From positions 32,001 to 96,000 of the forward strand of contig JAQBVF010000002.1 in NCBI GenBank assembly GCA_027623675.1: a DNA stretch of 64,000 nucleotides, given 5' to 3'. Both the position numbers and the translations under genes were made by a program. Origin of the DNA: Chloroflexota bacterium (GTDB lineage: Bacteria > Chloroflexota > Dehalococcoidia > Lucifugimonadales > UBA3495). This document shows positions 2,867 through 60,631 of this stretch, one piece after another (position 1 is the first letter of the stretch; the number at the start of each line of letters is the position of its first letter). The notes below the pieces were generated by a model. It was not told the origin of the DNA and did not search any database. It was given only the letters and a program-made list of their open reading frames with translations.

Positions 2867-3137
2867 CATGGTGAGCCCGTCGAACCACTGGTTTGGGTCA
2901 AGCGGGGTTCTTGCGGGCAGCAACTTGACTGATGCGCGCCCTTCGAGAGCCTCGGGACGAACGGGACCACCTCACAATCCTAGTCACCGGGTTGCGATTC
3001 GAGTCACCATAGTCGCTATCGTAGTCACCCAATTCTCGCTTGCTGTTGATATACAAGCTTGTCGAACCACCGCCGAGGGCGCACCCAGTTTTCTTAACCG
3101 GGAACTTAATTGGTGCGCGCCCCTCGATACCCACAAG
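2867..3137. repeat. Two degenerate REP-like inverted doublets in tandem (~181 bp period)
   Basis: CATGGTGAGCCCGTCGAACCAC (2867-2888) with GCGCGCCCTTCGAGAGCCTCGGGACGAACGGG (2934-2965). Second copy AAGCTTGTCGAACCAC (3055-3070) with GCGCGCCCCTCGA (3115-3127). Both share AACTTrAyTGrTGCGCGCCC. Confidence 0.55.
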
Positions 3138-3245
3138 ACCGGCGGCCAGATCGACTTTGCAGCGAAACGATTTTGGCAAAACCCCTGTGACCCATTCCTG
3201 CCGAGTACCAGCTGAATACCAGCCCAACCCGAGCAATGTGCTAAT

Positions 3246-45274: not shown

Positions 45275-46432
45275 CTACTCGTCATCCTCGTCTTCGATAT
45301 CGTCCAGGTCGTCTTCGTCGGGCCCGTCGTCCAAGTCGCCGGTCTCTTCAATTGACATTCCGGGAGCGTCGGCTGGCGAGTCGGGTGGGGCGTCGCCCAT
45401 CAGTTCGCCCAAGTCCTCGGTGGAAAGGTCAGGCACCCTGCCGGCGGGCCGGTCGGCAAAGTCGGTAACACCGTTCTCATACAGCTTTTCTTTCAACTCA
45501 ACCAGCGATTTCTCGCCGAAGTTGCGTATCTTAAGCAGTTCGTCGTCGGACATCTCCAGGACTTCGCCGACCTTGGAGATGTGAGAGCGCTTCAGGCAGT
45601 TCAGGGTGCGCGGAGACAGTTCCAGCTTCTCTATAGGCGTCTGGTAGATCTCCGGGGACACCACCAACGGCACTCGTTCGTTCCCTTCCTCGGCAACCCG
45701 GTTCAAGTTGCTGAATAGGAAGAAGTGATTAACGAGATTCTCGGCGGCTTGCTGAATGGCCTCGACAGCCTTGATCGTGCCGTCGGTCCAAACTTCCATC
45801 ACCAAGCGCTCGTAATCGGTAACTTGACCGACCCTGGTGCGCTCGACGTTGTAATTGACCTTGCGAACGGGGCTGAACACGGCGTCCACGGGCAGAACAC
45901 CCACTGGCGGGTTGTTGGTCCCGTCGTGCTGTGCCGCTGCCTGGTAGCCAACGCCCTGTTCGACGTTGAATTCCATGGACAGGTGGGAGTCATCGGAGTC
46001 CAGGGTCGCCAGGTGCAACTCTGGATTCACAATCTCGAAGTCGCTCGACGTTGCGATGTCACCCGCGCAAACCCGGCCTTCGCCTTTGACGTCCAGGCGC
46101 ATCTTGCCCGCCCGGTCCGATTGGGAGCGGATCCGGATGCGCTTGACGTTTAGGAGGAGTTCCATAACTTCCTCTTTGACGCCAGGCACGGCGGCATACT
46201 CGTGGACCACGTCGTCAATCTTGACCCACGTGACCGCGCAGCCTTTGGTGGAGCTGAGCAATATCCTCCGAAGAGGGTTGCCGATGGTCAGACCGAAACC
46301 ACGGGGCAGCGGCTCGACGGCCACCTTCCCATAAGTATCCTCTGATTCCAACACCCGAATCTCGGGCTTTATGATTTCTGTACCGGTCTCCGGCGAACCC
46401 GGAGTCAGGATTAAGGTGTCCAACATGGACAA
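45275..46432 (-). CDS. rpoA: RNA polymerase subunit alpha (long acidic C-terminal tail)
   Basis: [49 protein letters not shown]. Start may be TTG 46432 or ATG 46426. Confidence 0.97.
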
Positions 46433-46433
46433 A

Positions 46434-47060
46434 CTACCTCGAGTAAAACTCTACTATCAGCCTTGAATCTACTATTGCTTGCAGGTCCTCATCGGCGGGG
46501 AGCGACACCACTGTGCCAGTCATCTCGCTTTGGTCCAGACTCAGCCAAGCGGGGATGGGCCGTTTGGGGATCCCGTCGATCCGGCCGGCGTAGAAGTCGG
46601 TGGTCTTGATGGACTCCTTCCAGGAAATCACATCGCCGGGTCTTACCTGGTATGAGGGCACATCGGTCTTGTTACCGTTGACCCGGAAGTGGCCGTGGAG
46701 CACGGTCTGGCGGCCCTGTTTCCTGGAGTCGGAGAAACCAAGCTGGAATACCACATTGTCCAAACGACGCTCCAGAGACCGGAGCAGGTTCATGCCGGTC
46801 ACTCCGGGCGTGTTGAACGCGTTGGTCATGTAGCGCCTGAATTGGCCTTCCATGACGCCGTAGATGTATTTGGCCTTTTGCTTCTCCCGCAGGTGAACGG
46901 CGTAGTCGGTAGGCCTTCGGCGGCGGCGGGAGATGTCGCCGGGGGGATTGCGGCGCTTCTCGAAAGCGCAGCGGGGCGTGAAGCACTTATCGCCCTTTAA
47001 AAATAGCTTTTCGCCGGACCGCCGGCAGAGGCGGCAGGAGGGTCCTGTATATCTTCCCAT
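46434..47060 (-). CDS. rpsD: 30S ribosomal protein S4 (Zn-binding type)
   Basis: MGRYTGPSCRLCRR..KLFLKG.KC...C, LERRLDNVV, IVEFYSR. Confidence 0.97.
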   Translation of the reverse strand: MGRYTGPSCRLCRRSGEKLFLKGDKCFTPRCAFEKRRNPPGDISRRRRRPTDYAVHLREKQKAKYIYGVMEGQFRRYMTNAFNTPGVTGMNLLRSLERRLDNVVFQLGFSDSRKQGRQTVLHGHFRVNGNKTDVPSYQVRPGDVISWKESIKTTDFYAGRIDGIPKRPIPAWLSLDQSEMTGTVVSLPADEDLQAIVDSRLIVEFYSR

Positions 47061-47068
47061 GGACGGAG

Positions 47069-47452
47069 TTACACTCTCCTTCGTTTTGGCGGGCGGCACC
47101 CATTGTGAGGGATGGGCGTCACGTCCCGGATGCTGGTCACGAAAAGTCCTGCTCCCTGGAGGGAACGGATGGCGGCTTCCCGTCCCGCGCCAGGTCCCTT
47201 GATGAGGACGTCGATCTGGCGGAGTCCGGAATCCATACCCTTGCGGGCGGCCTGCTCGGCGGCGCGCTGGGCGGCGAAAGCGGTGCCCTTCCGGGAGCCT
47301 TTGAAGCCCACGGTGCCGGCGCTGGCAGTGGCGATAACGTTGCCCTGGGGGTCTGTAAGACTCACCAGGGTGTTGTTGAATGTCGAATAGATATAGGCCC
47401 GTCCTTGAGGCACCGAACGGCGCTCACGACGCCTTGTCCTTGGTCTAGGCAT
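47069..47452 (-). CDS. rpsK: 30S ribosomal protein S11
   Basis: [33 protein letters not shown]. Confidence 0.97.
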
Positions 47453-47490
47453 AAATAAATCTCTCTCGTACTAGCTGGTCTAGCTCGTGG

Positions 47491-47880
47491 CTACTTGCCG
47501 CCGGTGCGCCTGCCGCGGCCTGCGACGGTGCGGCGGGGTCCTTTGCGGGTTCGGGCATTGGTCTTGGTGCGTTGCCCGGCGACGGGCAGGTTCCGGCGGT
47601 GGCGCAGACCCCGGTAGGTGCCGATCTCGATGAGACGGCGAATGTTCTGGTTAACTTCCCGGCGCAGATCGCCTTCGTTGATGTAGTCCCGGTCGACCAA
47701 TTCCCTGATCCGGTCAACCTGTGCCTCGGTCAGTTCAATCATCCGCGGGGGAATGACCGGGTCAAGTTCGGCTTTGATCAGGATCTCTTCAGCAATCTTC
47801 GGGCCGATGCCATAGATGCTGCGAAGGGCTACATGCGCCCTCTTTCGGTCGGGAACGTCTACTCCGGCGATACGGACCAC
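47491..47880 (-). CDS. rpsM: 30S ribosomal protein S13
   Basis: [36 protein letters not shown]. Confidence 0.97.
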
Positions 47881-47968
47881 TCCGGGCCTCCTTAAATTAA
47901 CCCCATCTAATCCAATGGGTGACGGTCATCAAGACGACCGTCATTAAATTACCGTATATTGCTCTTGC

Positions 47969-48082
47969 TTAACCCTGCCGCTGGGAGTGCCTGGGGTTGG
48001 AACAGATTATCCTGACCACACCCTTGCGCTTGATCACATGGCAGTTGCTGCACCTGGGCTTAACCGATGCTGATACTTTCAA
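47969..48082 (-). CDS. rpmJ: 50S ribosomal protein L36 (Zn-ribbon type)
   Basis: Below ORF-track cutoff. Manual translation [40 protein letters not shown] start. Confidence 0.95.
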
Positions 48083-48141
48083 AACTAATGCCTTATAGCT
48101 GATTGACCGGTGAAATCGGGGAACGAGTCACTAGGACCGAA

Positions 48142-48360
48142 CTACTTGAACCGGTAGGTTATCCGGCCCCGGGTCAGATCGTATGGAGACAACTCCACCA
48201 GCACCCGGTCGCCGGGCAACACCCGGATAAAGTGCATCCTGATCTTTCCGGAAACGTGGGCCAAGACCTCATGATCGTTGGGAAGCTCCACCCGGAACAT
48301 GCCATTGGGAAGAGCCTCTTTGACGCTGGCCTCAACCTCGATCGCTTGTTTCTTCGCCAT
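48142..48360 (-). CDS. infA: Translation initiation factor IF-1
   Basis: [32 protein letters not shown]. Confidence 0.97.
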
Positions 48361-48456
48361 AATGCCTCGTTAAGTAATCCCGTAAGATAATTCCAAATCG
48401 CGCCCTCCCCGGTCCCACCGGTGGGAGAACGCTGCGGACCGCTGGCCGGCCCGGTG

Positions 48457-49263
48457 TTAGCCGTGGACCGTTAGAATCTCCGGTCCATCTTCAGTGATGG
48501 CTATAGAATGCTCGAAATGGGCCGAGAGTTCGCCGTCGGCGGTTATCACGGTCCATTCGTCATCCAGAATCTTCGTGTGCCAGTCCCCCATGTTGAACAT
48601 CGGCTCGATGGCGATGCACATCCCAACGCGAAGCAGCGGGCCCATGCCCGCCTGCCCGTAGTTGGGCACCTGGGGGTCTTCGTGCAGGAACCGGCCAACG
48701 CCGTGTCCCACAAACTCCCGCACCACGCCGTAGCCGAGGCTCTCACCGTAGGCCTGCACCGCAGCGCCAATATCGCCGACCCGCCCGCCGGGCTGGGCCG
48801 CTTTGATACCCATTTCCAAGCTGATACGAGTGGCGTCCATCAAAGCCACGGCTTCCGGCGTTACTTCGCCAACGGCCATTGATACCGCTGCGTCGCCAAT
48901 CATGCCCTCGATGGTGGCTCCCACGTCAACCTTCACGATATCGCCCTCTTTAAGCACCCGTTTGCCGGGTATCCCGTGGACGATCTCTTCATTGACCGAA
49001 GTACAGATACTGGCAGGGAATCCCCGGTAACCCATGAATGTGGGTTTGGCTCCCTGACGAGTAATCTCTTTGTAAGCGATCTTGTCCAAATCTTTGGTGG
49101 TCATTCCAGGTTCCACCGCAGCTTTCAACAGATCGATCACCGCGCCTACGATGCCTCCCGCACGACGCATAGAGTCCAGCTCCTGGGGCGATTTAATCGT
49201 AATCCCCCCCGAGTAGGTGGACGCCGAGTTTGAGGCGGTCTCATTTTTACGGCCGCGATTCAC
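48457..49263 (-). CDS. map: Type I methionine aminopeptidase
   Basis: CTSVNEEIVHGIP, DVGA...GDAA, GHGVG..LHEDP, AIEPM, SAHFEHS. Confidence 0.96.
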   Translation of the reverse strand: MNRGRKNETASNSASTYSGGITIKSPQELDSMRRAGGIVGAVIDLLKAAVEPGMTTKDLDKIAYKEITRQGAKPTFMGYRGFPASICTSVNEEIVHGIPGKRVLKEGDIVKVDVGATIEGMIGDAAVSMAVGEVTPEAVALMDATRISLEMGIKAAQPGGRVGDIGAAVQAYGESLGYGVVREFVGHGVGRFLHEDPQVPNYGQAGMGPLLRVGMCIAIEPMFNMGDWHTKILDDEWTVITADGELSAHFEHSIAITEDGPEILTVHG

Positions 49264-49368
49264 TTTGTATATTCTACTCCCGATTGATGGCCTTGGGAAC
49301 CCAGGGGGTTATCACTATCGTTAGGTTCCGGTAAACCCGCTAGCAAGCCGCCTGGCCGAAATGGACGT

Positions 49369-50022
49369 TTAGGCGTCCAGCGCCGCCAGGACTTGTTGGT
49401 TAACATCGTCAACGGTCTGGTCTCCGGAGATGTCCACCACGACATCGCGGTCGCGGTAGAAACCCAGCACGGGCGTGGTCTCGTCGTTGTAAACCTGGAT
49501 CCGCTTCTTGACCGCCTTGGGCTGGTCGTCGTCACGCTGGTACAGTTCACCGCCGCATTGGCTGCAAACCTTGGATGCGTCCTCGCCCTCGCCGATGGAA
49601 TGCGGCGCCTGGCAATCACGGCAGACGAACCGCCCGCCCAGTCGGCGGAGCAACACCGGCTCCGGGACCTCTATGTGGACCACTTTGTCCAAGCCGCGAA
49701 CGGCGCCCGACAGGGCTTTCTCCAACTCTTCGGCCTGGTGGGGGTTCCTGGGGAACCCATCCAAGATGAACCCTTCCTCGTTGGGAACGGACAACACCTT
49801 GTCCAGAATGATGTCGATGGTAACTTCGTCGGGGACCAACTCCCCTTTGTTCATATATTCCTTGGCCCGCAGACCCAAGGCTGTGCCCTGTCCCAGATGG
49901 TATCGGAAAAGGTCGCCAGAGCTGATGTGCGTGACCTTGAGCCGGTCTCGCAGCAGTTGGGCTTGGGTGCCCTTTCCGGCGCCGGGAGGGCCGAACAGCA
50001 CGAGTCTAAGTCCCTGGGCCAT
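49369..50022 (-). CDS. adk: Adenylate kinase (Zn-binding LID)
   Basis: GPPGAGKGTQA, GELVPD, LDGFPR, CRDC...CSQC, QRDDD. Confidence 0.97.
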   Translation of the reverse strand: MAQGLRLVLFGPPGAGKGTQAQLLRDRLKVTHISSGDLFRYHLGQGTALGLRAKEYMNKGELVPDEVTIDIILDKVLSVPNEEGFILDGFPRNPHQAEELEKALSGAVRGLDKVVHIEVPEPVLLRRLGGRFVCRDCQAPHSIGEGEDASKVCSQCGGELYQRDDDQPKAVKKRIQVYNDETTPVLGFYRDRDVVVDISGDQTVDDVNQQVLAALDA

Positions 50023-51350
50023 TATCTAAGGAAACCCTCGTAGTTGCGCATCATAAGCTGCGCCTCTAGCTGACGCAGGGTATCTAGACCCACACCCACC
50101 ATGATCAACAGGCTGGTGCTGCTCAGCGATATCGCTTGAACGCCGGTTATCAGCGACGCGATATAAGGCATGATGGCGATGGTGCCCAAGAACAGGGCGC
50201 CGCCCAACGTGATGCGCACGATCACACGGTTCAGGTAGTCCTGGGTGGGTTTGCCAGGCCGGATACCCAAAACAAACCCTCCGTTCTTCTGAAGATTCTC
50301 GGCCAGTTGCTGCTGATTGAACACAACCAGCGTGTAGAAGAAGGTGAACATCACAACCAGCACGAACACCATCACCCAATATAGGGGGGATGAAGGGATC
50401 AGCAGGTCCGAGGCGAAGTTGGCCACGTCACCGATCCAAGAGGTATTGGTGGCGAAGTAGGTGGCGATGGTCCCGGGCAGAATCACGATGGAAAAGGCAA
50501 AGATCAAGGGAATCATGCCCGCCGAGTTTATGCGCAGCGGTAGATAGGTCGCGCCACTCTGCCGGTACATCCTGCCGCCCCTGAAGATGCTGCGGCCGTA
50601 TTGCACCGGGATGCGACGGTGGGCCTCGTTGAACATGACGATGGCCGCGATGATCAGAACGCCGATTATGGCGAAGAAGCCGATGCCAAGCACGTTGTCC
50701 CGGTCCAAGAAACCCCGGGTGATTAGGTTGGGGAAACCGGCGACGATTCCCGCGAAGATTATCAGGGAGATGCCGTTGCCGATGCCGCGCTCGGTAATCA
50801 TCTCACCCAACCAGACCAAGAACATGGTGCCGGCGGCGATGGAGAACAGGGCGGCGATGGTCGGCAGGAGTGCGTCGCCCGAGAATCCCACATCGGCTAT
50901 GACGTTGCTCTGCTCCAGAAGAACGAGCTGTCCGTACCCTTGGGCAAAGGCGATGGGGATGGTGATCCAGTGGGTCAGCCGGTTCATCTTGGCTCGGCCG
51001 GCTTCGCCCTCGCGGGCCATGTCTTGGAGCGTTGGAATGACCGGAGTCAGCAACTGGATGATGATTGACGAAGTTATATAGGGGAAAACGCCCAGCGCTA
51101 CGATGCTCATACGGCTGAGGGCCCCGCCACTGAAGAGGTCCAAGAAGCCAAGTAGTTCGTTGTTCCGGAAGAGGTTATCCAGCTGTACCTGGTCGATACC
51201 CGGAAGAGGAATATGGGCGACGAACCGGTAGAGGGCCAATATGGCCAGGGTGAAAAGAATCTTGGCCCGCAAGTCGGGGAGGCTGAAGGCGTCGATCGCC
51301 GCCTGAATCAGCTTAGGGAATTTACCAGCCTGGGCCTCGGCGTTCATCAT
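50022..51350 (-). CDS. secY: Preprotein translocase subunit SecY
   Basis: ALGVFPYITSSII, WLGEMITERGIGNGISL, AGMIPLIFA, GIRPG, TSLLIMVGV. Confidence 0.97.
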   Translation of the reverse strand: MMNAEAQAGKFPKLIQAAIDAFSLPDLRAKILFTLAILALYRFVAHIPLPGIDQVQLDNLFRNNELLGFLDLFSGGALSRMSIVALGVFPYITSSIIIQLLTPVIPTLQDMAREGEAGRAKMNRLTHWITIPIAFAQGYGQLVLLEQSNVIADVGFSGDALLPTIAALFSIAAGTMFLVWLGEMITERGIGNGISLIIFAGIVAGFPNLITRGFLDRDNVLGIGFFAIIGVLIIAAIVMFNEAHRRIPVQYGRSIFRGGRMYRQSGATYLPLRINSAGMIPLIFAFSIVILPGTIATYFATNTSWIGDVANFASDLLIPSSPLYWVMVFVLVVMFTFFYTLVVFNQQQLAENLQKNGGFVLGIRPGKPTQDYLNRVIVRITLGGALFLGTIAIMPYIASLITGVQAISLSSTSLLIMVGVGLDTLRQLEAQLMMRNYEGFLR

Positions 51351-51799
51351 TACGCCGAGGTCTCCTCCGCTGTTCCTTTGGCCGCTTCGATCTTCGCTTT
51401 GGCGGAGCGGGTGAATCTGGCGGCCACCACGGTCACAGCCTTGCTGATCTCACCGTCGCCCACGATCTTCACCGGCAGGTTCAAGTTCCGCAGGAAACCC
51501 TTCTCCAAAAGGAGTTCGGGGGTGATGCGCTCTCCGGCGTCAAATAGGTCCAGCGTGGTCAGTTTGATCAGGGAGTAATAGGTCTTGAACGGGTTGTGGA
51601 AGCCCCGTTTCATGGGCAGTCCCTTGATCAAAGGCAACTGACCGCCTTCAAACCATATGGGCGGTCCGCCGCCGGAGCGGGACTTCTGGCCCTTCATGCC
51701 ACGGCCGGCAGTGCTGCCTTGTCCTGCCGCGTCACCGCGGCCGATCCGTTTTCTGCTTTTCCTGGCTCCCTTGGAAGGGGCCAGCTGATGTTCCATCAT
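51350..51799 (-). CDS. rplO: 50S ribosomal protein L15
   Basis: RIGRG, GRGMKGQKSRSG, FEGGQLPL. Confidence 0.97.
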   Translation of the reverse strand: MMEHQLAPSKGARKSRKRIGRGDAAGQGSTAGRGMKGQKSRSGGGPPIWFEGGQLPLIKGLPMKRGFHNPFKTYYSLIKLTTLDLFDAGERITPELLLEKGFLRNLNLPVKIVGDGEISKAVTVVAARFTRSAKAKIEAAKGTAEETSA

Positions 51800-51960
51800 A
51801 AGAGGGGCCTCATTAAGATGTGACGTAACCTGTTAGAGGAGCGCCTACGCCATGTATCTGATTCTAACTGCCTTGTGGCCGTGGTTAAACGATTTGATCG
51901 CCAGCGAAACCCCAGTTTACCGCCGCTGAGGGTTCACAAACGTCCTAAAGGGCAGAGTAG

Positions 51961-52140
51961 CTAGGCTATTTCGACCTTTACCATGTGGCTGACCTTGTTA
52001 ACCATGCCGCGGATGGTCGGTGAGTCCTGGTGGACCACCGTATGGTGCAGGCGCCGCAGACCCAGCGACTCGATGATTCGGCGCTGGATTCCGGGGCGGC
52101 CGATACCGCTCCTGGTCAAAGTGATCTTTATTTCCGCCAT
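51961..52140 (-). CDS. rpmD: 50S ribosomal protein L30
   Basis: Below ORF-track cutoff. Manual translation [59 protein letters not shown]. Confidence 0.95.
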
Positions 52141-52194
52141 ATCGTCTCGTCCAGTGTTTTCGGGTTGGGTCTTTCCGGTTTTAATGATGCGAAG

Positions 52195-52767
52195 TTACGC
52201 TTCGACCGGCACTTCTTTCGCGGGTTGTTCCTTGGACGGGACCGGCCGGCCGAGGCGGCGCGCGATCTCAACCTCAGGGTCCTTCAATTGGCGCAGGGCT
52301 TCCATCGTCGCGTATACGATATTGATCGGGTTCCTGGATCCAAGGGATTTTCCGACCACGTCTTTCACGCCGCCCAGTTCCAAGATGGCGCGCATGGCGC
52401 CGGCCGCGATCACCCCGGTCCCTTCGCGGGCGGGCTTAATCATGACGATGGTCGCGCCCTTCTTGACCGTGATCTTCTGGGGAATGGTGCTTCCAATCAG
52501 CGGAATGGTGACCGTCTCGCGCCTGGCTACCGCATTGCCTTTTCTGACGGCGTCGGGAATCACGAGGGCCTTGCCCAAGCCAGCGCCTACCTGCCCTTGA
52601 CCGTCACCAACGACGACCAGGGCGTTGAACCGGAGCCGACGGCCTCCCTTTACAACTTTGGAGATACGGCGGGTAAAGACGACCCTCTCGGTGAATCCAC
52701 CGGTGTCTTCATCCCGGCCTCGTCCTCGGTCTCGATCAGAGAAGAACCTATTTGGGGCTTGGACCAT
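52195..52767 (-). CDS. rpsE: 30S ribosomal protein S5
   Basis: RISKVVKGGRRLRFNALVVVGD, GTGVIA, KSLGS.NPIN. Confidence 0.97.
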   Translation of the reverse strand: MVQAPNRFFSDRDRGRGRDEDTGGFTERVVFTRRISKVVKGGRRLRFNALVVVGDGQGQVGAGLGKALVIPDAVRKGNAVARRETVTIPLIGSTIPQKITVKKGATIVMIKPAREGTGVIAAGAMRAILELGGVKDVVGKSLGSRNPINIVYATMEALRQLKDPEVEIARRLGRPVPSKEQPAKEVPVEA

Positions 52768-52830
52768 TAGCGAGCTAGACCTCCCAGTCTCCGCGGAAAA
52801 TCGCGTGGGTTATTCAGGTTGATTAATATA

Positions 52831-53199
52831 TTAGAACTTCAGACCGGCTTCCCGGGTAGCTTCGGCGAGGGCTTTGACCCGGCCATGGTATTTGCATCCG
52901 CCCCGGTCAAACACGACCTGTGTGACGCCTGCGGCCTGGGCCCTTTCTGCCACCAGCTTCCCCACCGCGGCTGATGCCGCGATCTTGGGGGTGATGGGAC
53001 CGCCGGCTTCCTTGATGGCGTCGGCGCTGGATGCCGCCACCAGAGTGGTCCCTGTGGTGTCGTCGATCACCTGAGCGTAGATGTGCTGCAGGCTGCGGAA
53101 TACGGCCAGCCTGGGCCGTTCCGGCGTGCCGGACACTTTGTTGCGAAGCCTGACGTGGCGTATCTTCCGGAGACTTTTCGCGTTCTTATCTTTAGGCAT
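52831..53199 (-). CDS. rplR: 50S ribosomal protein L18
   Basis: [28 protein letters not shown]. Confidence 0.97.
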
Positions 53200-53236
53200 G
53201 TTTGTTTCTTTATCAGCGCGGCGCCGTATTCAGGCC

Positions 53237-53809
53237 TTAGGCCTTTCTGGCGGCCGCCTTTCCTGGCTTAAAGTGTAGGGTTTCGTCGGAGTACCTGATG
53301 CCCTTTTCCTTATACGTGTTGGGCGGGCGGACCCTCCGCACGTTGGCCGCAAGTTGGCCTACTTTTTGCTTGTCGATACCCCGAACGTGTATTCGTGTTG
53401 GTCCTTCCACCTCCAGAGTTACACCCTCTTCAGGATGCATCTCCACAGGGTGGCTGTAGCCCACATTCAAGATGATTCCGTTGCCGGCGGCGGCGACCCT
53501 ATATCCGACGCCCATGATCTCAAGCGTCCTAGTGAAGCCTTCCGAAACCCCGATCACGGCATTGGATATCAGGCTGCGGGTTAGGCCGTGCAACGAATGG
53601 TGGAATTTGTTGTCCGAGTGACGCTCCACCAGGATCTCGCCGTCCCCAACCTTAACCACCACTTCGGGGTGGTACTTCTGCTCGATCGTCCCCCTAGGAC
53701 CGGTGACTTTGACCCCGCCGTACTGGACTTCTACCTGAACGCCGTCGGGCACAGGTATGGCCTTCCGGCCGATGCGGGAGAGTGTTTTCTCTTGTTTCTT
53801 TTCGTTCAT
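53237..53809 (-). CDS. rplF: 50S ribosomal protein L6
   Basis: SRIGRKAI, GVGYR, GYSHP, YKEKGIRY. Short N-terminal extension. Confidence 0.97.
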   Translation of the reverse strand: MNEKKQEKTLSRIGRKAIPVPDGVQVEVQYGGVKVTGPRGTIEQKYHPEVVVKVGDGEILVERHSDNKFHHSLHGLTRSLISNAVIGVSEGFTRTLEIMGVGYRVAAAGNGIILNVGYSHPVEMHPEEGVTLEVEGPTRIHVRGIDKQKVGQLAANVRRVRPPNTYKEKGIRYSDETLHFKPGKAAARKA

Positions 53810-53859
53810 AACCGGTTTACCAGACTAAACAGAGTAGTTAAAGACATTCTTAGATCCGT

Positions 53860-54258
53860 CTACCAGACGTAGCAGAGCAGTTCCCCGCCAACGCCTTGAC
53901 GCCAGGCGTTTCTCCCGGCCATTACGCCTTTGGAGGTGGAGACGATGGCCAGTCCGATGCCGCCGTAGACCCGGGGTATCTCACCCTTGCCCACATAGAC
54001 CCTCAGTCCCGGTTTGCTCACGCGTTTCAGACCCGAGATGGCCGGCTGCCGTCCTTCGCGGTAGGTCAGGTGCAGGCGGATGGTCGGATGGGCCTGGGCC
54101 CGGGGTATGTCGAAGTCTCGGATAAAACCCTCATCTTTGAGAATCTTGGCCAAGGCCAACTTCATCTTGGAATGCGGGAGACTAACGGAATCGTGACGCA
54201 CCTGTATGGCGTTACGGATCCGCGTAAGCATGTCTGCAATTGGGTCGGTTACCGGCAT
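53860..54258 (-). CDS. rpsH: 30S ribosomal protein S8
   Basis: [35 protein letters not shown]. Confidence 0.97.
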
Positions 54259-54322
54259 TTTAGGTCTTTCTCCCCTTTCCGCCTGAAGTTATCTAGTTCG
54301 TGCATCAGTGACATCCGGGTGG

Positions 54323-54508
54323 CTACAAGCTGGCCTTGCGCACGCCGGGCAATTCTCCGTTCAGAGCCATTCCCCGGAAACAGATGCGGCACAGCCCGGT
54401 GTACCTGTTATAGGCACGCGGCCTCGCGCATTTGTGGCACCGGTTGTAACCCCGGACTTTGAATTTAGGCTCCCTGAGCCATTTTTGGACCATTGATGTT
54501 TTTGCCAA
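54323..54508 (-). CDS. rpsN: 30S ribosomal protein S14, Zn-binding (type Z)
   Basis: TTG start after GGAGG. MAKTSM...RCHKCARPR...LCRICFR...[11 protein letters not shown]. Confidence 0.96.
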
Positions 54509-54551
54509 CGACGCCTCCGTTAGGCTCTTCCGTGTTAATAGACCGGTTTGC

Positions 54552-55292
54552 TTAGGCCTCGACCGTGTCTTTGATAAAGGGCATACCGTAGAGTTCCAGC
54601 AAGCGGATCGCCTCGGCGTCATTCTTGGCCGTGGTGGCGATGGTCACCTGCAGTCCGCGTATCTTGTCTATCTGGTTGTAATCAATCTCCGGGAAGATGA
54701 TCTGCTCCCGGATCCCGATCGTGTAATTTCCCCGACCGTCCAGGCCGCGCCTTTGCAGGCCCCTGAAGTCCCGGATACGTGGAAGGGCCGTGTTTATCAG
54801 GCGGTCCAAGAAGTGGTACATACGGGCGCCCCTAAGAGTAACCGCAGTGCCGATGGCGTTGCCCTGCCTGATCTTGAATCCGGCGATGGACTTTTTCGCC
54901 CGCGTAATCACCGGTTTCTGACCGCTGATGATGGTCAGGTCGTTGCTGGCGGCCTCCATGGCCCGTCCGTTGGTCAGCGCCTCGCCCACGCCGATGTTCA
55001 GAACAATCTTCTGCAGGCGGGGCACCTCCATGGTGTTGTCGTAATTGAATTCCTGCACCATGGCGGGAATGATCGTCGTCTTGAATTGTTCATAGAGACG
55101 CGGCGGAGGCGGTGGCTCCGTTGGCGGTCCTAGTTCGGCAGGGGCATTCCGGCCGCCACCCGTGCGTTCCCGCCTGGAACGGCGAGGGGCTTCCTGCGTC
55201 ACGGCCTCGGCAGCTTCCGAACTCTCAAGTTCGGCTACCGTTTCTTGAGATTCTTCCGCGCCCTCTGGTTGTTGTCTCTCGTCATCGAGCAT
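54552..55292 (-). CDS. rplE: 50S ribosomal protein L5 (with N-terminal extension)
   Basis: [41 protein letters not shown]. Confidence 0.96.
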
Positions 55293-55602
55293 CGTCGATT
55301 ACTTCCTGGCATTTGGTGCAACTGCGAACCCTGGAGCCCGTGTCCAAGAAAACGGTCTTGGGCTTGGTGGGCGCGTTGCATTTATTACAGATCAGAACCA
55401 CGTTTGAGGCATGGATCGACGCCTCTTTCTGGATGCGCCCGCCCTGGCTCACACCGGGCCTGGGCTTCATGTGGCGTGTCACCAAGTTTACACCCTCGAC
55501 AACCACACGTTCATTTTCACGGTCCTGGCGTTCAACCCGGCCGGTCTTGCCCTTCTCTTTCCCGGCGATCACCAGCACATTGTCTCCGGTGCGGACTCGC
55601 AT
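55282..55602 (-). CDS. rplX: 50S ribosomal protein L24
   Basis: [28 protein letters not shown]. Confidence 0.96.
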
Positions 55603-55970
55603 CAGACCACCTCCGGCGCAAGGGACACGATCCGCATGAACCCCTTGTCTCTCAGTTCACGGGCGACCGGGCCAAAGATGCGGGTGCCCCTGGGCAGTTG
55701 GTCGTCGGCGATCAATACCGCCGCGTTGTCGTCAAACTTGATGTAGGTCCCATCGGGCCGGCGGCGGGGTTGGGCTTGGCGAATGACCACGGCCTTGACC
55801 ACCTCTCCCTTCCGGACCGGCGAGTTGGGGGCGGCTTCCCTCACGTTGCACACGATGATATCGCCCACGTGAGCGTACCTGCGCCTGCTGCTCCCGGGTA
55901 TGTTAATAAGGCGTATAACCTTGGCCCCACTATTGTCGGCCACCTTCAGCCGGGTATAGGTCTGAATCAT
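55602..55970 (-). CDS. rplN: 50S ribosomal protein L14
   Basis: [38 protein letters not shown]. Confidence 0.97.
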
Positions 55971-56509
55971 TCCTTTTCTTCCTGTTCACCTTCGTCACCG
56001 CTCTCGGAATCATCAGCTTCAGCGTCTTCTTCAGCTTCGACTGGTTCCTCTTCGGCGACAAGCTCTTCATCAGAGGCGTCGTCAGCCTCTGGTTCTTCTA
56101 CTTCCAATTCTTCAACGGCAGACGCTTCCATTGCATTGTCCGCGGTATCACCACTGGAGTCGTCTTCGGCTGCCCTGGCCTCCGCAGCCGCGATGCGGGG
56201 CTGGGTAATTTCTTGGCTGACATCGGTCTCCACATCTATGGGGCGGACCTCAGCAATCTGCTTGCGTTCCAGTATCGCCATGAGTCGCCAGTGCTTGCTC
56301 TTGGAGATACGCCTGGTCTCTTCGATACGAACGGTATCGCCCAGGACACACTTGTTCTCCGGGTCGTGCACGTAGAAACGCGCTACCCGGCGCACCTGCT
56401 TCCGGTAGAGCCGGTGACGCTGTTTCCAAACCATCTCAACGATGGCGGTCTTGTCTTGAGAGTTCCGCACGACTGCGCCGACGCGGACTTTGCGCATGGA
56501 CCTTGCCAC
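55967..56509 (-). CDS. rpsQ: 30S ribosomal protein S17 (with long acidic C-terminal extension)
   Basis: [38 protein letters not shown]. Confidence 0.94.
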
Positions 56510-56709
56510 TAGCCAGCCTCCTGGATCTGCCGTTCTTTAATCACCGTCCGGAGCCTGGCAATGGTCTTTTTAACCGTGTTGGGCTCGTTGGAATCGGGCA
56601 ACTGGTTGGTCGCGGCGCGGAAACGAAGATTCATCAATTCCCGGCCGGCTTTCTCCAGCTCCTCGTACAACTGATCGTTGCTTAGTTCTCTGATTTCGTG
56701 GGCACGCAT
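56509..56709 (-). CDS. rpmC: 50S ribosomal protein L29
   Basis: EIRELS, ELMNLRF, KKTIARLRT. Confidence 0.95.
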   Translation of the reverse strand: MRAHEIRELSNDQLYEELEKAGRELMNLRFRAATNQLPDSNEPNTVKKTIARLRTVIKERQIQEAG

Positions 56710-56712
56710 GGG

Positions 56713-57153
56713 TTAAACCAAGCCGTTGGCCACGGCGGCGGCCAAACGGTCTCTTACGACTGTCTTCGTGGGGATCGGCAACTTTTGCGAGGCCAGGCGA
56801 AGTGCCTGGACCGCCTCTTCGTGGGGCACTCCGGCCACCTCAAAGAGCACCTTGCCCGGTTTTACCACTGCCACCCAGTATTCATTGGCGGCTTTTCCGC
56901 CGCCCATGCGGGTTTCAGCGGCTTTCTTGCTGACGGCCTTGTCAGGGAAAACCCTGACCCAGACCTGTCCACCGCGCTTTAAGTGCCGGGTTACGGCGAC
57001 GCGGGCGGCTTCGATCTGCCTGGCGGTGATCCATGAGGCCTCCATGGCCTTAAGACCGATCTCGCCGAAGGAAACCGAACTTCCGGTGATCGCGGTTCCC
57101 CGCATCTTGCCACGGAAGTGCTTCCTAAATTTTGAGCGTTTGGGTTGCAGCAT
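56713..57153 (-). CDS. rplP: 50S ribosomal protein L16
   Basis: MLQPKR.KFRK, QIEAAR, RVFPDK, RMGGGK. Confidence 0.97.
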
Positions 57154-57174
57154 GGGTTGCTCCTAGTCCGGTCC

Positions 57175-57918
57175 CTATTCGGGGTTTTCCAGTTCGACGG
57201 CCCCGAGGGCTTCTTCGATGTCCTCTGCCTGTACCGTTACTTCGATGTTATCCAGTTCTTCGACTTCTTCAGCCCGGGGCGGCAGCACCTCGCCGTGGTA
57301 GACCCAGGTCTTGACGCCAACCTGTCCCATCGCGGTGTGCGCCTCAGCCAAGGAGTAGTCAATGTCGGCCCGAAGGGTGTGCAGGGGCACTCGGCCGATC
57401 ATCAGTTTCTCGACGCGGGCAATCTCCGACCCGGTGATGCGTCCCTTGATGATGATCTTTATGCCTTCGGCGCCCGCCTGCATGCACCTTTGCGCCGCCT
57501 GCCGCATCGCCCGGCGGTAGGCAACCCTACGCTCCAACTGCTCGGCCACGTTCCGGCCCACCAGATAGGCGTTGGTCTCAGGGTGCTCGATCTCGACGAT
57601 ATTGAGCTGTATCCGGCTTTCGGTGATGGCTTCGAGCTTGGCACGCAGGTTCTTGACCCGTTCGCCGTCCCGTCCGATCAGTATCCCAGGACGGGCCGAG
57701 TGGATATTGATGACGCTGTCTTGGGCGCCGCGGTCAATCTCAACCTTGGCGATACCGGCATCGGAGAACGCCTTGTACTCGTTCTTGATGCTATCGCGAA
57801 GCCGCAGGTCCTGGGTCACCAAGTCACGATAGGAACTGCTGTTGCCAGCGTACCAATGGGCCTTCCAGTCCTTGATGATACCCAGGCGGAAACCGTATGG
57901 GTGGGTCTTATGCCCCAT
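57175..57918 (-). CDS. rpsC: 30S ribosomal protein S3 (acidic C-terminal tail)
   Basis: MGHKTHPYGFRLG, ARPGILIGR, GRVPLHTLRADIDY. Confidence 0.97.
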   Translation of the reverse strand: MGHKTHPYGFRLGIIKDWKAHWYAGNSSSYRDLVTQDLRLRDSIKNEYKAFSDAGIAKVEIDRGAQDSVINIHSARPGILIGRDGERVKNLRAKLEAITESRIQLNIVEIEHPETNAYLVGRNVAEQLERRVAYRRAMRQAAQRCMQAGAEGIKIIIKGRITGSEIARVEKLMIGRVPLHTLRADIDYSLAEAHTAMGQVGVKTWVYHGEVLPPRAEEVEELDNIEVTVQAEDIEEALGAVELENPE

Positions 57919-57920
57919 TC

Positions 57921-58268
57921 CTAGCTCCTATTCTCGTCTTCGTCCACAACCACCATTACGTGGCTGGAGCGCTTGATTATCCGCCCGATTCGGCCTCTGG
58001 CCCGGGGCCGAAAGCGCTTAATCGACTTGGCGTTGTCTGCCGATATGTGGACGATCCGTAGATTGTCCCGGTCCATCAGCATGTTGTTCTCGGCGTTGGC
58101 CGCCGCCGACGCCACTACCTTAGCCACCGACTTCGCCCAAGGCGAGGGCAACAGATTAAGGCTATTCAGGGCGTCGTCCACCCGCTGGCCTCTTACGAGG
58201 TCCAAGATGGGCTTGAGCCTCTTTTGGGAGGTCCCCAGTGATTTGGCTAATGCTTTTACGGGTGGCAT
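57921..58268 (-). CDS. rplV: 50S ribosomal protein L22
   Basis: SAAANAENN, KRFRPRARGR, KRSSH. Confidence 0.96.
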   Translation of the reverse strand: MPPVKALAKSLGTSQKRLKPILDLVRGQRVDDALNSLNLLPSPWAKSVAKVVASAAANAENNMLMDRDNLRIVHISADNAKSIKRFRPRARGRIGRIIKRSSHVMVVVDEDENRS

Positions 58269-58272
58269 TGGT

Positions 58273-58557
58273 TTACCTCACCCGGCTGGTGCGTTCGGAC
58301 CGTGATATATGACCGCGAAAGGTCCTGGTGGGAGAGAACTCTCCCAGCCGGTGACCGACCATGTTTTCAGTGATGAACACCGGCACGTGCCGGCGGCCGT
58401 CATGGACCCCAATCGTCAACCCAACCATCTCTGGCATGATCATGGAGGCGCGGGCCCAAGTCCGAATGACCGTGTTGGCCCCGGAGCGCTGCACCGCTTC
58501 CACGTGTTTCATCAATTTGGGATGGACGTAAGGTCCCTTTTTAATCGAACGGGACAT
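58273..58557 (-). CDS. rpsS: 30S ribosomal protein S19
   Basis: [33 protein letters not shown]. Start trimmed from the longer ORF. Confidence 0.97.
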
Positions 58558-58558
58558 C

Positions 58559-59392
58559 TTAGCGTCTCCTGGTTCTGCGCATGATAAATTTGCTCGACGC
58601 CTTCTTCTTGCGGCGCGTCTTGTAACCCAAGGTGGGTTTGCCCCAGGGCGACTTGGGCCCCGGCATGCCGATGGGGGAGCGGCCCTCACCACCACCATGG
58701 GGGTGGTCCACTGGGTTCTTGGCCACACCGCGGACCTGCGGGCGGCGGCCCTTGTGGCGGGTTGCCCCAGCCTTGCCCAGGCTTTCATTCTTATGGTCGG
58801 GGTTGGAGAGTTGTCCCACACTGGCGCGGCAACGCAGCAACACCCGCCGCATCTCGCCAGAGGGCAGACGCACCAACACGTATTCGCCTTCCCGTGACAG
58901 CAGCTGGGCGCCGGTGCCGGCGCCCCGGACGATCTGTCCGCCCCTACCCGGAGTCAATTCCATATTGTGGACCACGGTTCCGGTAGGTATGTTCGCCAAC
59001 GGCAGGCAGTTGCCCAGGCTGATCTCGGCATCCGGCCCGGACTGGACCAGGGAGCCTACCTCCAGCCCGTGGGGGGCTAGGATGTAGCTCTTCTCGCCGT
59101 CCACGTAGTAGATCAAAGCGATGCGGGTGGTCCGGTTCGGGTCGTACTCGATGGACTTTACGCGGCCAGGGACCCCGTCCTTGATCCGCTTGAAGTCAAC
59201 CTTGCGGTACATGCGCCGCGATCCGCCGCCGCGGCTCCGGGTGGTGATCCGTCCCCGGTTGTTGCGCCCGGCATGGTTCTGCTTGGCTTCGACGAGGGAC
59301 TTTTCCGGCTTGGTGGCGGTGAGCTCTTCGAAAGAAGGGCGTACCGCGTTCCGGGTTCCCGGTGTTCTCGGTTTTAGATTCTTAAGCGGCAT
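58559..59392 (-). CDS. rplB: 50S ribosomal protein L2
   Basis: [35 protein letters not shown]. Confidence 0.98.
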
Positions 59393-59401
59393 GCGAGGTT
59401 T

Positions 59402-59686
59402 TTACAGCCCCTCGATCAGGTTGATGCGGTCGCCTTGCTTCAAGGTGACAACCGCTTTCTTCGTGTCGGGCCGCTGGGTGATGCGGGCGCCGTAGCGCTT
59501 CTTCTTACCCCGCAGCTTGGTGATATTCACATCCAGCACGGTTACGCTGAAGTTCTTCTCGACGGCCTCTTTGACCTCCACCTTGTTCGCCTGGGGTGCG
59601 ATGTGGAAGGTGTACTTGCCGGACTCTTGCAGGAGCGTGCTTTTCTCCGTGATGGTGGGCTTGAGGAGCACGTGTTGGATATCCAT
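59402..59686 (-). CDS. rplW: 50S ribosomal protein L23
   Basis: PTITEKS, ANKVEVKEAVE, KKAVVTL. Confidence 0.96.
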   Translation of the reverse strand: MDIQHVLLKPTITEKSTLLQESGKYTFHIAPQANKVEVKEAVEKNFSVTVLDVNITKLRGKKKRYGARITQRPDTKKAVVTLKQGDRINLIEGL

Positions 59687-60631
59687 CTACGCCTGTTCCT
59701 CCGAAGAATCCCCAGTTGGAGCGTCCTGGGACGCCGTCTCAGGGGCTGCTTCTTCACCCGCGGCGGCGGTGGCGCGGCGGCGCCTGGTCCGCGGCTTGGG
59801 AGCCTCTTCTTCCGCCGGCGCCTCTGTCGGGTCAGCCGTACCTGCGGCGGCAGCAGGCGTGGCGCTGCGGCGGCGAGGCCTGGGCTTCGTTTCTTCCTCG
59901 GCAACAGCGGTCGCGGTATCTTCCGTTACGGAAACAGCCTCGTCGTCGGCTGCCTCAGGCTCGGCCGTTCCGCCGCTGGCCCATCTGGCGCCGCGGCGTC
60001 CGTGGGGCTCAACCGCAAGCGTTTCTTCCGCCCAGCGGGCCGCTTCCACGGTCATGATTACCGTGTCCCGGGCCAACAGTTCCTGAGCGTTCAGTTGGTT
60101 GACTGGAATCGTCCAGATCTTTTTCAGGTTATGGGCCGATTGGACCACCTCTGTAACGGTCCCCATGGTGACGACCAGAGCCGATCCGCCAACTGCGAGA
60201 TTCTCCAGCAATTGGGCCATGGACTTGGTCTTGCCGTCGATGGTGCTCGTGGAATCGAGACAGAACAGACGGCTTTGGCGCGCCTTATCCGATAGCACGC
60301 AACGCAGGGCTTGCCGCTTCATGCGCTTGGGAAGGGCGGCCCGGTAGCTGCGGGGATGCGGTCCGAAGACCACGCCGCCGTGACGCCACTGGGGGGCGCG
60401 GGTGCTGCCCTGCCGGGCCCGGCCGGTGTGTTTCTGCAGCCACGGTTTGCGGCCGCCGCCGGAAACCTGCGCCCTGGTCTTCGTGTCATGGGTTCCCTGG
60501 CGCTTGTTGCCCTGGTAGATGACCATGGCTTGGTGCACCAAGGATTGGTTCATCGGCACGTTGAAGACGGCATCGTTAAGTTCGATGTTATCTAGTGTGT
60601 CGCCGCTCTGGTTTTTTACTGCAACTTGCAT
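59687..60631 (-). CDS. rplD: 50S ribosomal protein L4 (with ~105-aa C-terminal extension)
   Basis: RQGTHDTKTRAQVSGGGRKPWLQKHTGRARQG, GGVVFGP.PR. Confidence 0.96.
   Translation of the reverse strand: MQVAVKNQSGDTLDNIELNDAVFNVPMNQSLVHQAMVIYQGNKRQGTHDTKTRAQVSGGGRKPWLQKHTGRARQGSTRAPQWRHGGVVFGPHPRSYRAALPKRMKRQALRCVLSDKARQSRLFCLDSTSTIDGKTKSMAQLLENLAVGGSALVVTMGTVTEVVQSAHNLKKIWTIPVNQLNAQELLARDTVIMTVEAARWAEETLAVEPHGRRGARWASGGTAEPEAADDEAVSVTEDTATAVAEEETKPRPRRRSATPAAAAGTADPTEAPAEEEAPKPRTRRRRATAAAGEEAAPETASQDAPTGDSSEEQA

Follow-up and report, generated by a model that had tools for sequence, protein, structure and literature searches.

Long low-complexity extensions on ribosomal proteins and RNA polymerase in a lineage of Dehalococcoidia

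In the assembly of a Chloroflexota bacterium (GCA_027623675.1) the S10-spc-alpha operon encodes several ribosomal proteins, and the alpha subunit of RNA polymerase (RpoA), with long additional stretches at one end of the chain. The window, i.e., the whole stretch of 64,000 nucleotides (nt) analyzed here (contig JAQBVF010000002.1, positions 32,001 to 96,000 of the forward strand), contains the operon on its minus strand. The coordinates are collected in Table 1, where G000 is the genome under study and the other G numbers are compared genomes. Five products, uS17, uL4, uL5, uS3 and RpoA (the prefix is dropped below), have a complete Pfam core domain ending well short of the extension, whose length was counted from the last conserved core residues; S17 has a single match in the genome. 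A preliminary description made from the sequence had given about 95 extra residues for S17, with 34 D/E among the final 67, and an acidic tail for S3. Both are correct, the D/E count exactly. For L4 (about 105 extra residues claimed) and L5 (up to about 63, with no start near the core) the extensions are as described and the acidic label is not, the former having 23 D/E vs. 14 K/R and the latter mixed blocks. The RpoA tail is acidic, with 64 rather than about 55 residues, and the short additions to L6 and S5 exist without being acidic. That of S5 ranges from 17 to 53 amino acids (aa) across the genus. A miscalled start was considered for L6 and ruled out, because in 16 of 16 genus genomes CTN stands where the ancestral start would be, and the ten extra residues are therefore real. 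In L5 of G000 there is no in-frame ATG, GTG or TTG within 12 codons of the core, and in all 15 scorable genus genomes the ATG is found 8 nt ahead of the L24 stop. As had been noted, the extended frames abut or overlap the next gene.

Table 1. Features of the operon and of other loci mentioned in the text. Locations without a locus handle are positions in the window.
Feature	Location	Strand	Remarks
S10-spc-alpha operon	45275..60631	-	
rpsQ (uS17)	55967..56509	-	180 aa; core = residues 1-82; stop overlaps L14 start by 4 nt
uS17 C-terminal tail	55970..56263	-	98 aa, net -35
rplD (uL4)	59687..60631	-	314 aa; stop abuts L23 start (0 nt)
uL4 C-terminal tail	59690..60016	-	109 aa, net -9
rplE (uL5)	54552..55292	-	246 aa; ATG within 3' end of rplX (L24)
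uL5 N-terminal extension	55104..55292	-	63 aa, net -8
rpsC (uS3)	57175..57918	-	247 aa
uS3 tail	57178..57282	-	35 aa, net -12
rpoA	45275..46432	-	385 aa; stop 2 nt before L17 start
RpoA tail after alpha-CTD	45278..45469	-	64 aa, net -24
uL6 N-terminal addition	53780..53809	-	10 aa, not acidic
uS5 C-terminal addition	52198..52251	-	18 aa, net 0 in G000
nusA	L156:7173-8825	-	G000 contig C28; 205-aa tail
IF2 gene	L156:4835-6670	-	G000 contig C28; 611 aa
Gene with acidic N-terminus	L148:687-1169	+	G000 contig C10; 161 aa
Branched helix-45 insertion (23S)	L348:660-800	-	G000 contig C48; about 111 nt extra; ES15L site
Group I intron (23S)	G002 L347:3633-4038		also L384, L385, L386, L387, L390, L346, L388, L389
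uL30 joined to alpha-CTD-like domain	L044:8649-9110	-	G023; Pfam PF00327 + PF03118

Comparison among relatives argues that the extensions are real coding sequence under codon-level purifying selection, and that they are genuine, as the preliminary description held. The frame of the S17 tail was free of stops in 33 of 33 genomes, with stops in the two shifted frames in 30 and 33 of them; these frames would be basic (20–38% K/R) and stop-rich, and are not used. The pN/pS values in the tails (11–16 genus genomes per gene) were 0.29 for S17, 0.43 for L4, 0.44 for L5, 0.37 for RpoA and 0.16 for S3, compared to 0.07–0.13 in the cores of the same genes, rough figures since pS is close to saturation and pN is biased downward by the alignment of low-complexity sequence. 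When the tail DNA was aligned blind to frame, mismatches reached 0.56–0.62 at third positions vs. 0.25–0.38 at first and second positions, and gap lengths were multiples of three in 483/496, 357/379, 365/376 and 96/96 cases (pairwise counts, not independent events). One genome with ambiguous bases (G012) was left out of the pN/pS, frame-blind and helix-45 pairing analyses. S17 tails measure 63–161 aa within the genus and up to 245 aa of tandem repeats within the order, and 120 database relatives of 148–227 aa were among the matches listed; codon use in the tails is relaxed. The coding status, the codon-level selection and the excess at third positions together indicate that frame and composition are preserved while length varies by in-frame indels and tandem repeats, in agreement with the earlier expectation, checked here in the genus, that composition would be conserved among close relatives. 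Contigs from two sequencing runs, possibly the source of the assembly, span the stretch and differ from it by a single substitution, without any indel.

Three kinds of segment were recognized in the tails: hypervariable E/A/P/D spacers, short conserved motifs and arginine blocks. The S17 tail starts with roughly 33 conserved residues, continues through a hypervariable run of E, A, P and D and finishes in a conserved end whose DNA doubles as the purine-rich leader of rplN; its distal part has no motif. The ends of the tails encode the purine-rich leader of the next gene, which would account for their conserved Glu-rich last residues. In the genus, S17 tails have 0.40 D/E and 0.19 A, and L4 tails 0.23 of each. 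The L4 tail has a basic proximal motif (EPHGRRG) followed by two Glu-then-Arg blocks of the PKPRxRRR type, which are repeated two or three times in each of the 12 genus tails aligned, and the L5 extension has an acidic block, an Arg/Gly block and a Pro-rich linker, in this order. The S3 tail is 35–36 aa long throughout the genus with 84% identity, and its IEVTV-type motif is kept across most of the order, being visible in the consensus of a 65-sequence alignment. In most order-level genomes (L044, L051, L055, L056 and others) it overlaps the L16 start by 14–53 nt, so that its end is dual-coding. Two short hydrophobic motifs, EDLGELM and APGMSI, are conserved in the RpoA tail within the genus, and amphipathic motifs are found in the RpoA tails of several families. 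Arginine blocks occur in L4, L5 and L21, whose tails are net positive in many relatives; a net charge of -0.15 per residue is never reached by the L4 tail in 13 of 13 genus genomes, nor by the L5 extension in any of 11 order-level genomes having one. The term acidic, and with it the acidic coat proposed earlier, fits S17, S3 and RpoA; L4 and L5 are mixtures of acid and arginine blocks.

The disorder also proposed agrees with what is predicted. In AlphaFold models the S3 tail (pLDDT 43–50) has one weak helix and the RpoA tail (pLDDT 44–67) no structure, and S17, L4 and L5 are predicted to be disordered from their composition. Fold-back of the S3 or RpoA tail onto its own core was considered and is not predicted in these models, which fuzzy contacts would escape. 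A TOP-IDP scan of termini was too noisy and was not used. Among the solved bacterial-ribosome S17 chains listed (76–135 aa) none matches beyond profile position 100.

To see how widely such ends occur in G000 we used a gene set made by script (2,775 genes, 2,538 of at least 90 aa), counting as acid-ended those proteins whose terminal 40 aa have at least 30% D/E and few hydrophobic residues. There were 26 among the 2,538, and 14 of the 26 belong to gene expression or gyrase: S17, RpoA, S2, S6, S16, L10, L19, L25, RpoC, sigma-70, trigger factor, deformylase, GyrA and, as a borderline case, HisRS. Seven of the 14 are ribosomal, an odds ratio of about 28 if some 40 ribosomal proteins qualify; the other twelve acid-ended proteins were left without annotation. 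NusA and L21 are likewise tailed. No such tails were found on EF-G, EF-Tu, L7/L12 or IF2 of this genome. The eleven ribosomal tails add up to 785 aa and -172 charges, with borders set by eye, and are C-terminal in ten cases and N-terminal in L5. The tails thus cluster on the gene-expression machines and are not spread over whatever proteins have a free end, which bears out the earlier focus on the ribosome and RNA polymerase. Elsewhere the proteome (6.0% D, 6.5% E, median pI 5.2) has no general D/E excess and is not halophile-like. Strong expression was considered as a reason for where the tails are placed, but codon bias is too weak to rank the genes by expression. The most basic ribosomal proteins are untailed (L2, +35; L16, S4 and S11, +17; S9, +16), and tails are found on the acidic cores of RpoA (-14), RpoC (-52), trigger factor (-44) and L25 (-8) as well as on the basic cores of S17, L4, L5, S3 and L19 (+7 to +14). 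The NusA tail is acidic and then turns into RGG repeats, and IF2 is short, without a long N-terminal region. A gene with an acidic N-terminus, convergent with rplT-rpmI-infC, was considered as delta-subunit-like and set aside, having no Pfam match.

Papers are cited below by PMC number where they have one. The distribution was surveyed in operon regions from 17 of 19 genomes in the genus, all 5 in the family, 18 in the order, 36 of 115 in the class and 20 of 90 in the phylum, those of class and phylum picked for long contigs. To these were added 77 loci from other phyla, a non-random set of best L6 matches in which Mycobacterium and Oscillospiraceae are heavily represented. We left out genes truncated at contig ends or with less than half their length covered, as well as four genomes (G004, G011, G029 and G038) with no S17 match. 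In the order genus, family, order, class, phylum and other phyla, S17 tails of at least 40 aa were found in 17/17 (including G000), 4/5, 13/17, 12/36, 1/20 and 0/52; L4 tails of at least 40 aa in 13/13, 2/5, 5/17, 7/36, 2/20 and 1/39; L5 extensions of at least 40 aa in 15/15, 3/5, 11/16, 3/34, 2/20 and 2/68; and RpoA tails of at least 40 aa in 12/12, 4/5, 4/14, 23/36, 1/17 and 1/37. S3 tails of at least 30 aa are common everywhere (29/45 in other phyla) but acidic chiefly in this order. No scorable genus genome has lost the S17, L4, L5, S3 or RpoA tail. The S17 tail is absent from low-GC small genomes of the order and from a small-genome clade that is probably Dehalococcoidales, and other lineages have instead a long tail on S3, S5, L17, L29, L15, S6, L19 or L21. 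Judging from these genomes, different Dehalococcoidia carry the tail on different proteins, and it is reduced where the genome is small.

Total tail load rises with GC and with genome size (rho 0.76, 27 genomes with all genes; G025, G039 and G149, of the 30, lacked some). In contrasts the latter relation was weaker (r 0.54) and only 13 of 26 had the same sign, indicating that a few reduced lineages drive it. The operon load was hardly related to that of S2, S6, S16 and L19 (rho 0.24, p 0.23, n = 27), so that the word coordinated, used in the preliminary description, finds weak backing. The organism itself is probably a member of SAR202 and looks like group III, since a tree built from 16 ribosomal proteins places the nearest Dehalococcoidia records beside the genus and G000 has 88 matches to the luciferase-like family, a hallmark of that group (PMC6946804). 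One side observation concerns G023, where uL30 is joined by a linker to a domain like the RNA polymerase alpha-CTD.

In the genus and in two sister genera the 23S rRNA genes are also long, 3,480–3,560 nt vs. 2,920–3,140 in most others, and the 16S was normal in five of five genomes checked. We considered whether these genes hold several expansion segments that match the tails and rejected the idea, because the excess is mostly a group I intron and only an insertion in helix 45 remains. The intron (355–436 nt) follows 23S position 1923 in nine genomes by alignment (G002, G001, G005, G012, G013, G016, G021, G022 and G028). It matched Rfam RF00028 in six of six tested, four above the gathering score; the exon ends in U, the intron in G, and the longest open frame is 73–121 aa. 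It is apparently fixed in the genus; the G000 contig ends before the site. The helix-45 insertion has compensatory changes at 14 of 42 predicted pairs (7 genus sequences) and adds 57–139 nt in 34 of 37 family genomes scored. Its length follows that of the L4 tail in genus means (rho 0.71, n = 25, with the G263 tail at 160 aa) and, less so, in contrasts (r 0.35, p 0.035, with that tail reset to 66 aa, as it runs into L23). L4 tails are below 40 aa in 8 of 22 genera having the insertion, and long ones occur without it outside the family. The link suggested by these figures would be weak at best; the insertion is older than the long L4 tails, and it may be excised as an intervening sequence rather than retained. 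In G263 (L485) L4 reads in frame into L23, a fusion or a sequence error. Other Dehalococcoidia, G059 (L366), G025 (L374), G035 (L376) and G056 (L377), have 23S insertions of 85–116 nt near E. coli positions 500–550, 650–700 and 1700–1750, which we take to be helices 25, 31 and 63, sites of eukaryotic expansion segments. In five of five genomes (G000, G002, G021, G024 and G082) 16S and 23S are far apart or on separate contigs; in G000 they are on C15 (L351) and C48 (L348), pointing to unlinked rRNA genes.

The explanation that we tentatively favor is that the tails, disordered and attached to exposed termini, act as repulsive bristles, while short motifs have specific jobs in S3 and RpoA. Low-complexity extensions, presumably translated and placed at the surface, would project from those termini of the ribosome, of RNA polymerase and of their partners that face the solvent, and their negative charge would lower non-specific sticking to RNA, DNA and neighboring particles. 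A second and smaller layer, probably specific, would comprise the S3 tail, the proximal S17 segment, the hydrophobic motifs of RpoA and the arginine blocks of L4, L5 and L21, putative short motifs that would bind protein or RNA partners. In Hfq (PMC5606850) and HMGB1 (PMC10250230) non-specific binding to nucleic acids is suppressed by acidic disordered tails, positive proteins are trapped by ribosomes (PMC5726854), and in Mycoplasma the ribosomal extensions face the solvent and disrupting them lowers fitness (PMC9534751). The targeting to gene-expression machines argues against pure drift, the interchangeable position and free length against a single docking site, and the lack of relation between tail presence and core charge against a general self-chaperone. 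Several points weigh on the other side. The charge of the tails is small next to that of the rRNA of a ribosome, some 4,500 negative charges, so that bulk charge would change little; the arginine clusters of L4, L5 and L21, in tails that are net positive in many relatives, would attract RNA; tolerated excess would also make tail load track genome size; small-genome lineages live without most tails; and the near saturation of pS and the bias in pN count in the same direction.

The main rival is nearly neutral accretion under a filter, by which slippage would lengthen purine-rich ends overlapping the ribosome-binding site of the next gene and selection would merely remove harmful versions (sticky, basic or frameshifted). 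The position of tail ends over or beside the next start, together with the leader that they encode, speaks for this explanation, which would also cover the tandem repeats and several-fold length changes, the swapping between proteins, the relaxed codon use, and a load that goes up with genome size and GC and down in small genomes. We regard it as possible but doubtful, given the strong concentration on gene-expression machines, which are proteins costly to lengthen, the N-terminal L5 extension with its conserved new start and the retention of five tails in every scorable genome of the genus.

The tails might instead be tethers showing short motifs to specific partners, those of S3 and RpoA in transcription-translation coupling and the arginine blocks on rRNA, with the acidic stretches as spacers. 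The fixed length, low pN/pS and widespread motif of the S3 tail are in line with this, as are the amphipathic RpoA motifs, the repeated L4 blocks and the location of the Mycoplasma S2, S3, S5 and S6 extensions near the mRNA entry site (PMC9534751). However, motifs differ between families and the distal S17 tail is free of them. The carriers, moreover, are presumably scattered over both ribosomal subunits, and we find tethering rather unlikely. A eukaryote-like outer layer, built by this family on its own, can also be imagined, in which a retained, branched helix-45 expansion of 100–140 nt would be held by basic motifs of uL4 and bL21, and an acidic coat on S17, S3, S2, S6 and RpoA would provide docking and spacing for transcription-translation coupling. 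If true, ribosomal accretion would have been replayed in bacteria, but we consider this unlikely because of the weak link to L4, the greater age of the insertion and its possible excision.

That the tails are RNA mimics or built-in chaperones, as the preliminary description suggested, each shielding its own basic core until assembly, would suit S17, L4, L5, S3 and L19, where acidic or mixed tails are attached to basic cores, and there is precedent in Hfq and the D/E repeats (PMC5606850; PMC10250230). The absence of tails from L2, L16, S4, S11 and S9 and their presence on acidic cores weaken this idea, and we find it improbable. In favor of an adaptation to cold, to the pressure of the deep sea or to high internal salt, SAR202 group IIIa members live mostly below 200 m (PMC6946804) and halophiles are marked by acidic low-complexity regions (PMC6821194). 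The proteome, however, is not halophile-like, many further families of the class also have a long tail on S17 or RpoA, and short near-identical contigs, some on the L4 tail, are present in a run labeled as groundwater (low depth and weak evidence); such an adaptation is very improbable. An artefact of assembly or gene calling is refuted at the DNA level by the tails of all scorable genus genomes and the 120 listed relatives, the agreement of the run contigs and the codon-level selection, and has practically no chance of being correct.

Bacterial ribosomal proteins commonly have acidic low-complexity tails, which are costly and still lack an explanation, and those described here are an extreme lineage variant of this known feature, not a new system; by itself the finding reveals no new mechanism. 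Dehalococcoidia provide a natural series, from almost no tails to more than 900 extra residues on the eleven proteins surveyed, and it lies on proteins (S17, L5 and L4) seldom tailed elsewhere, in an abundant marine clade. Since cultured members of this clade exist (PMC10444878), the question of tail function is open to experiment.

We found no paper on ribosomal protein tails or the helix-45 insertion in SAR202 or Dehalococcoidia, in a search without most subscription papers. Ntountoumi et al. (2019; PMC6821194) described 822 low-complexity regions among the ribosomal proteins of bacteria, most of them C-terminal and rich in A/E, and a D/E enrichment in those of RNA polymerase, of unknown function. 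The tails of G000 share their terminal position and the dominance of Ala and Glu (the entropy cut-off of that paper was not applied here), and the carriers S2, S16, L25, S3, S6, L10, L19 and L21 are all tailed in G000 too. S17, L4 and L5 are not among the frequent carriers, and the part of the supplement searched has one Lys/Ala-rich S17 tail and no L4, L5 or Chloroflexota name; eleven proteins tailed at once is also unlike what is described there. In Mycoplasma pneumoniae eleven ribosomal proteins are extended, mostly predicted to be disordered and solvent-exposed, and such extensions are common across bacteria, frequently on L4, with an elusive function (Xue et al., 2022; PMC9534751). Mycoplasma differs in its reduced genome and set of carriers, S17 not being mentioned in the searchable supplement, and some of its extensions fold (S6, L22 and L29), unlike those predicted in G000. 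The lineage specificity claimed earlier thus holds for the choice of S17, L4 and L5 and not for such tails as a class, which are general in bacteria (PMC6821194; PMC9534751). The terminal extensions of IF2 (bioRxiv 10.64898/2026.02.08.704698) are also disordered, on a translation protein, with stress-dependent effects, whereas IF2 of G000 is short. The C-terminal extension of eukaryotic uL4 lies on ES15L and ES7L, and in yeast ES15L, i.e., helix 45, takes its first part (Pillet et al., 2015; PMC4598080). Our lineage resembles this in having a C-terminal extension of about 100 aa together with a helix-45 insertion, and differs in that the extension is low-complexity and mostly acidic, no homology being expected. 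An acidic disordered segment on a nucleic-acid-binding protein, as in G000, is found in the Hfq C-terminal domain (PMC5606850) and the D/E repeats (PMC10250230). The autoinhibition of Hfq and HMGB1 may differ from what we see, as no tail-core contact is predicted in two models of G000, which would miss fuzzy contacts, and several of its carriers have acidic cores. Further acidic tails are those of GyrA, sigma-70 region 1.1 and the Firmicute delta subunit, and the GyrA and sigma-70 of G000 also have acidic segments.

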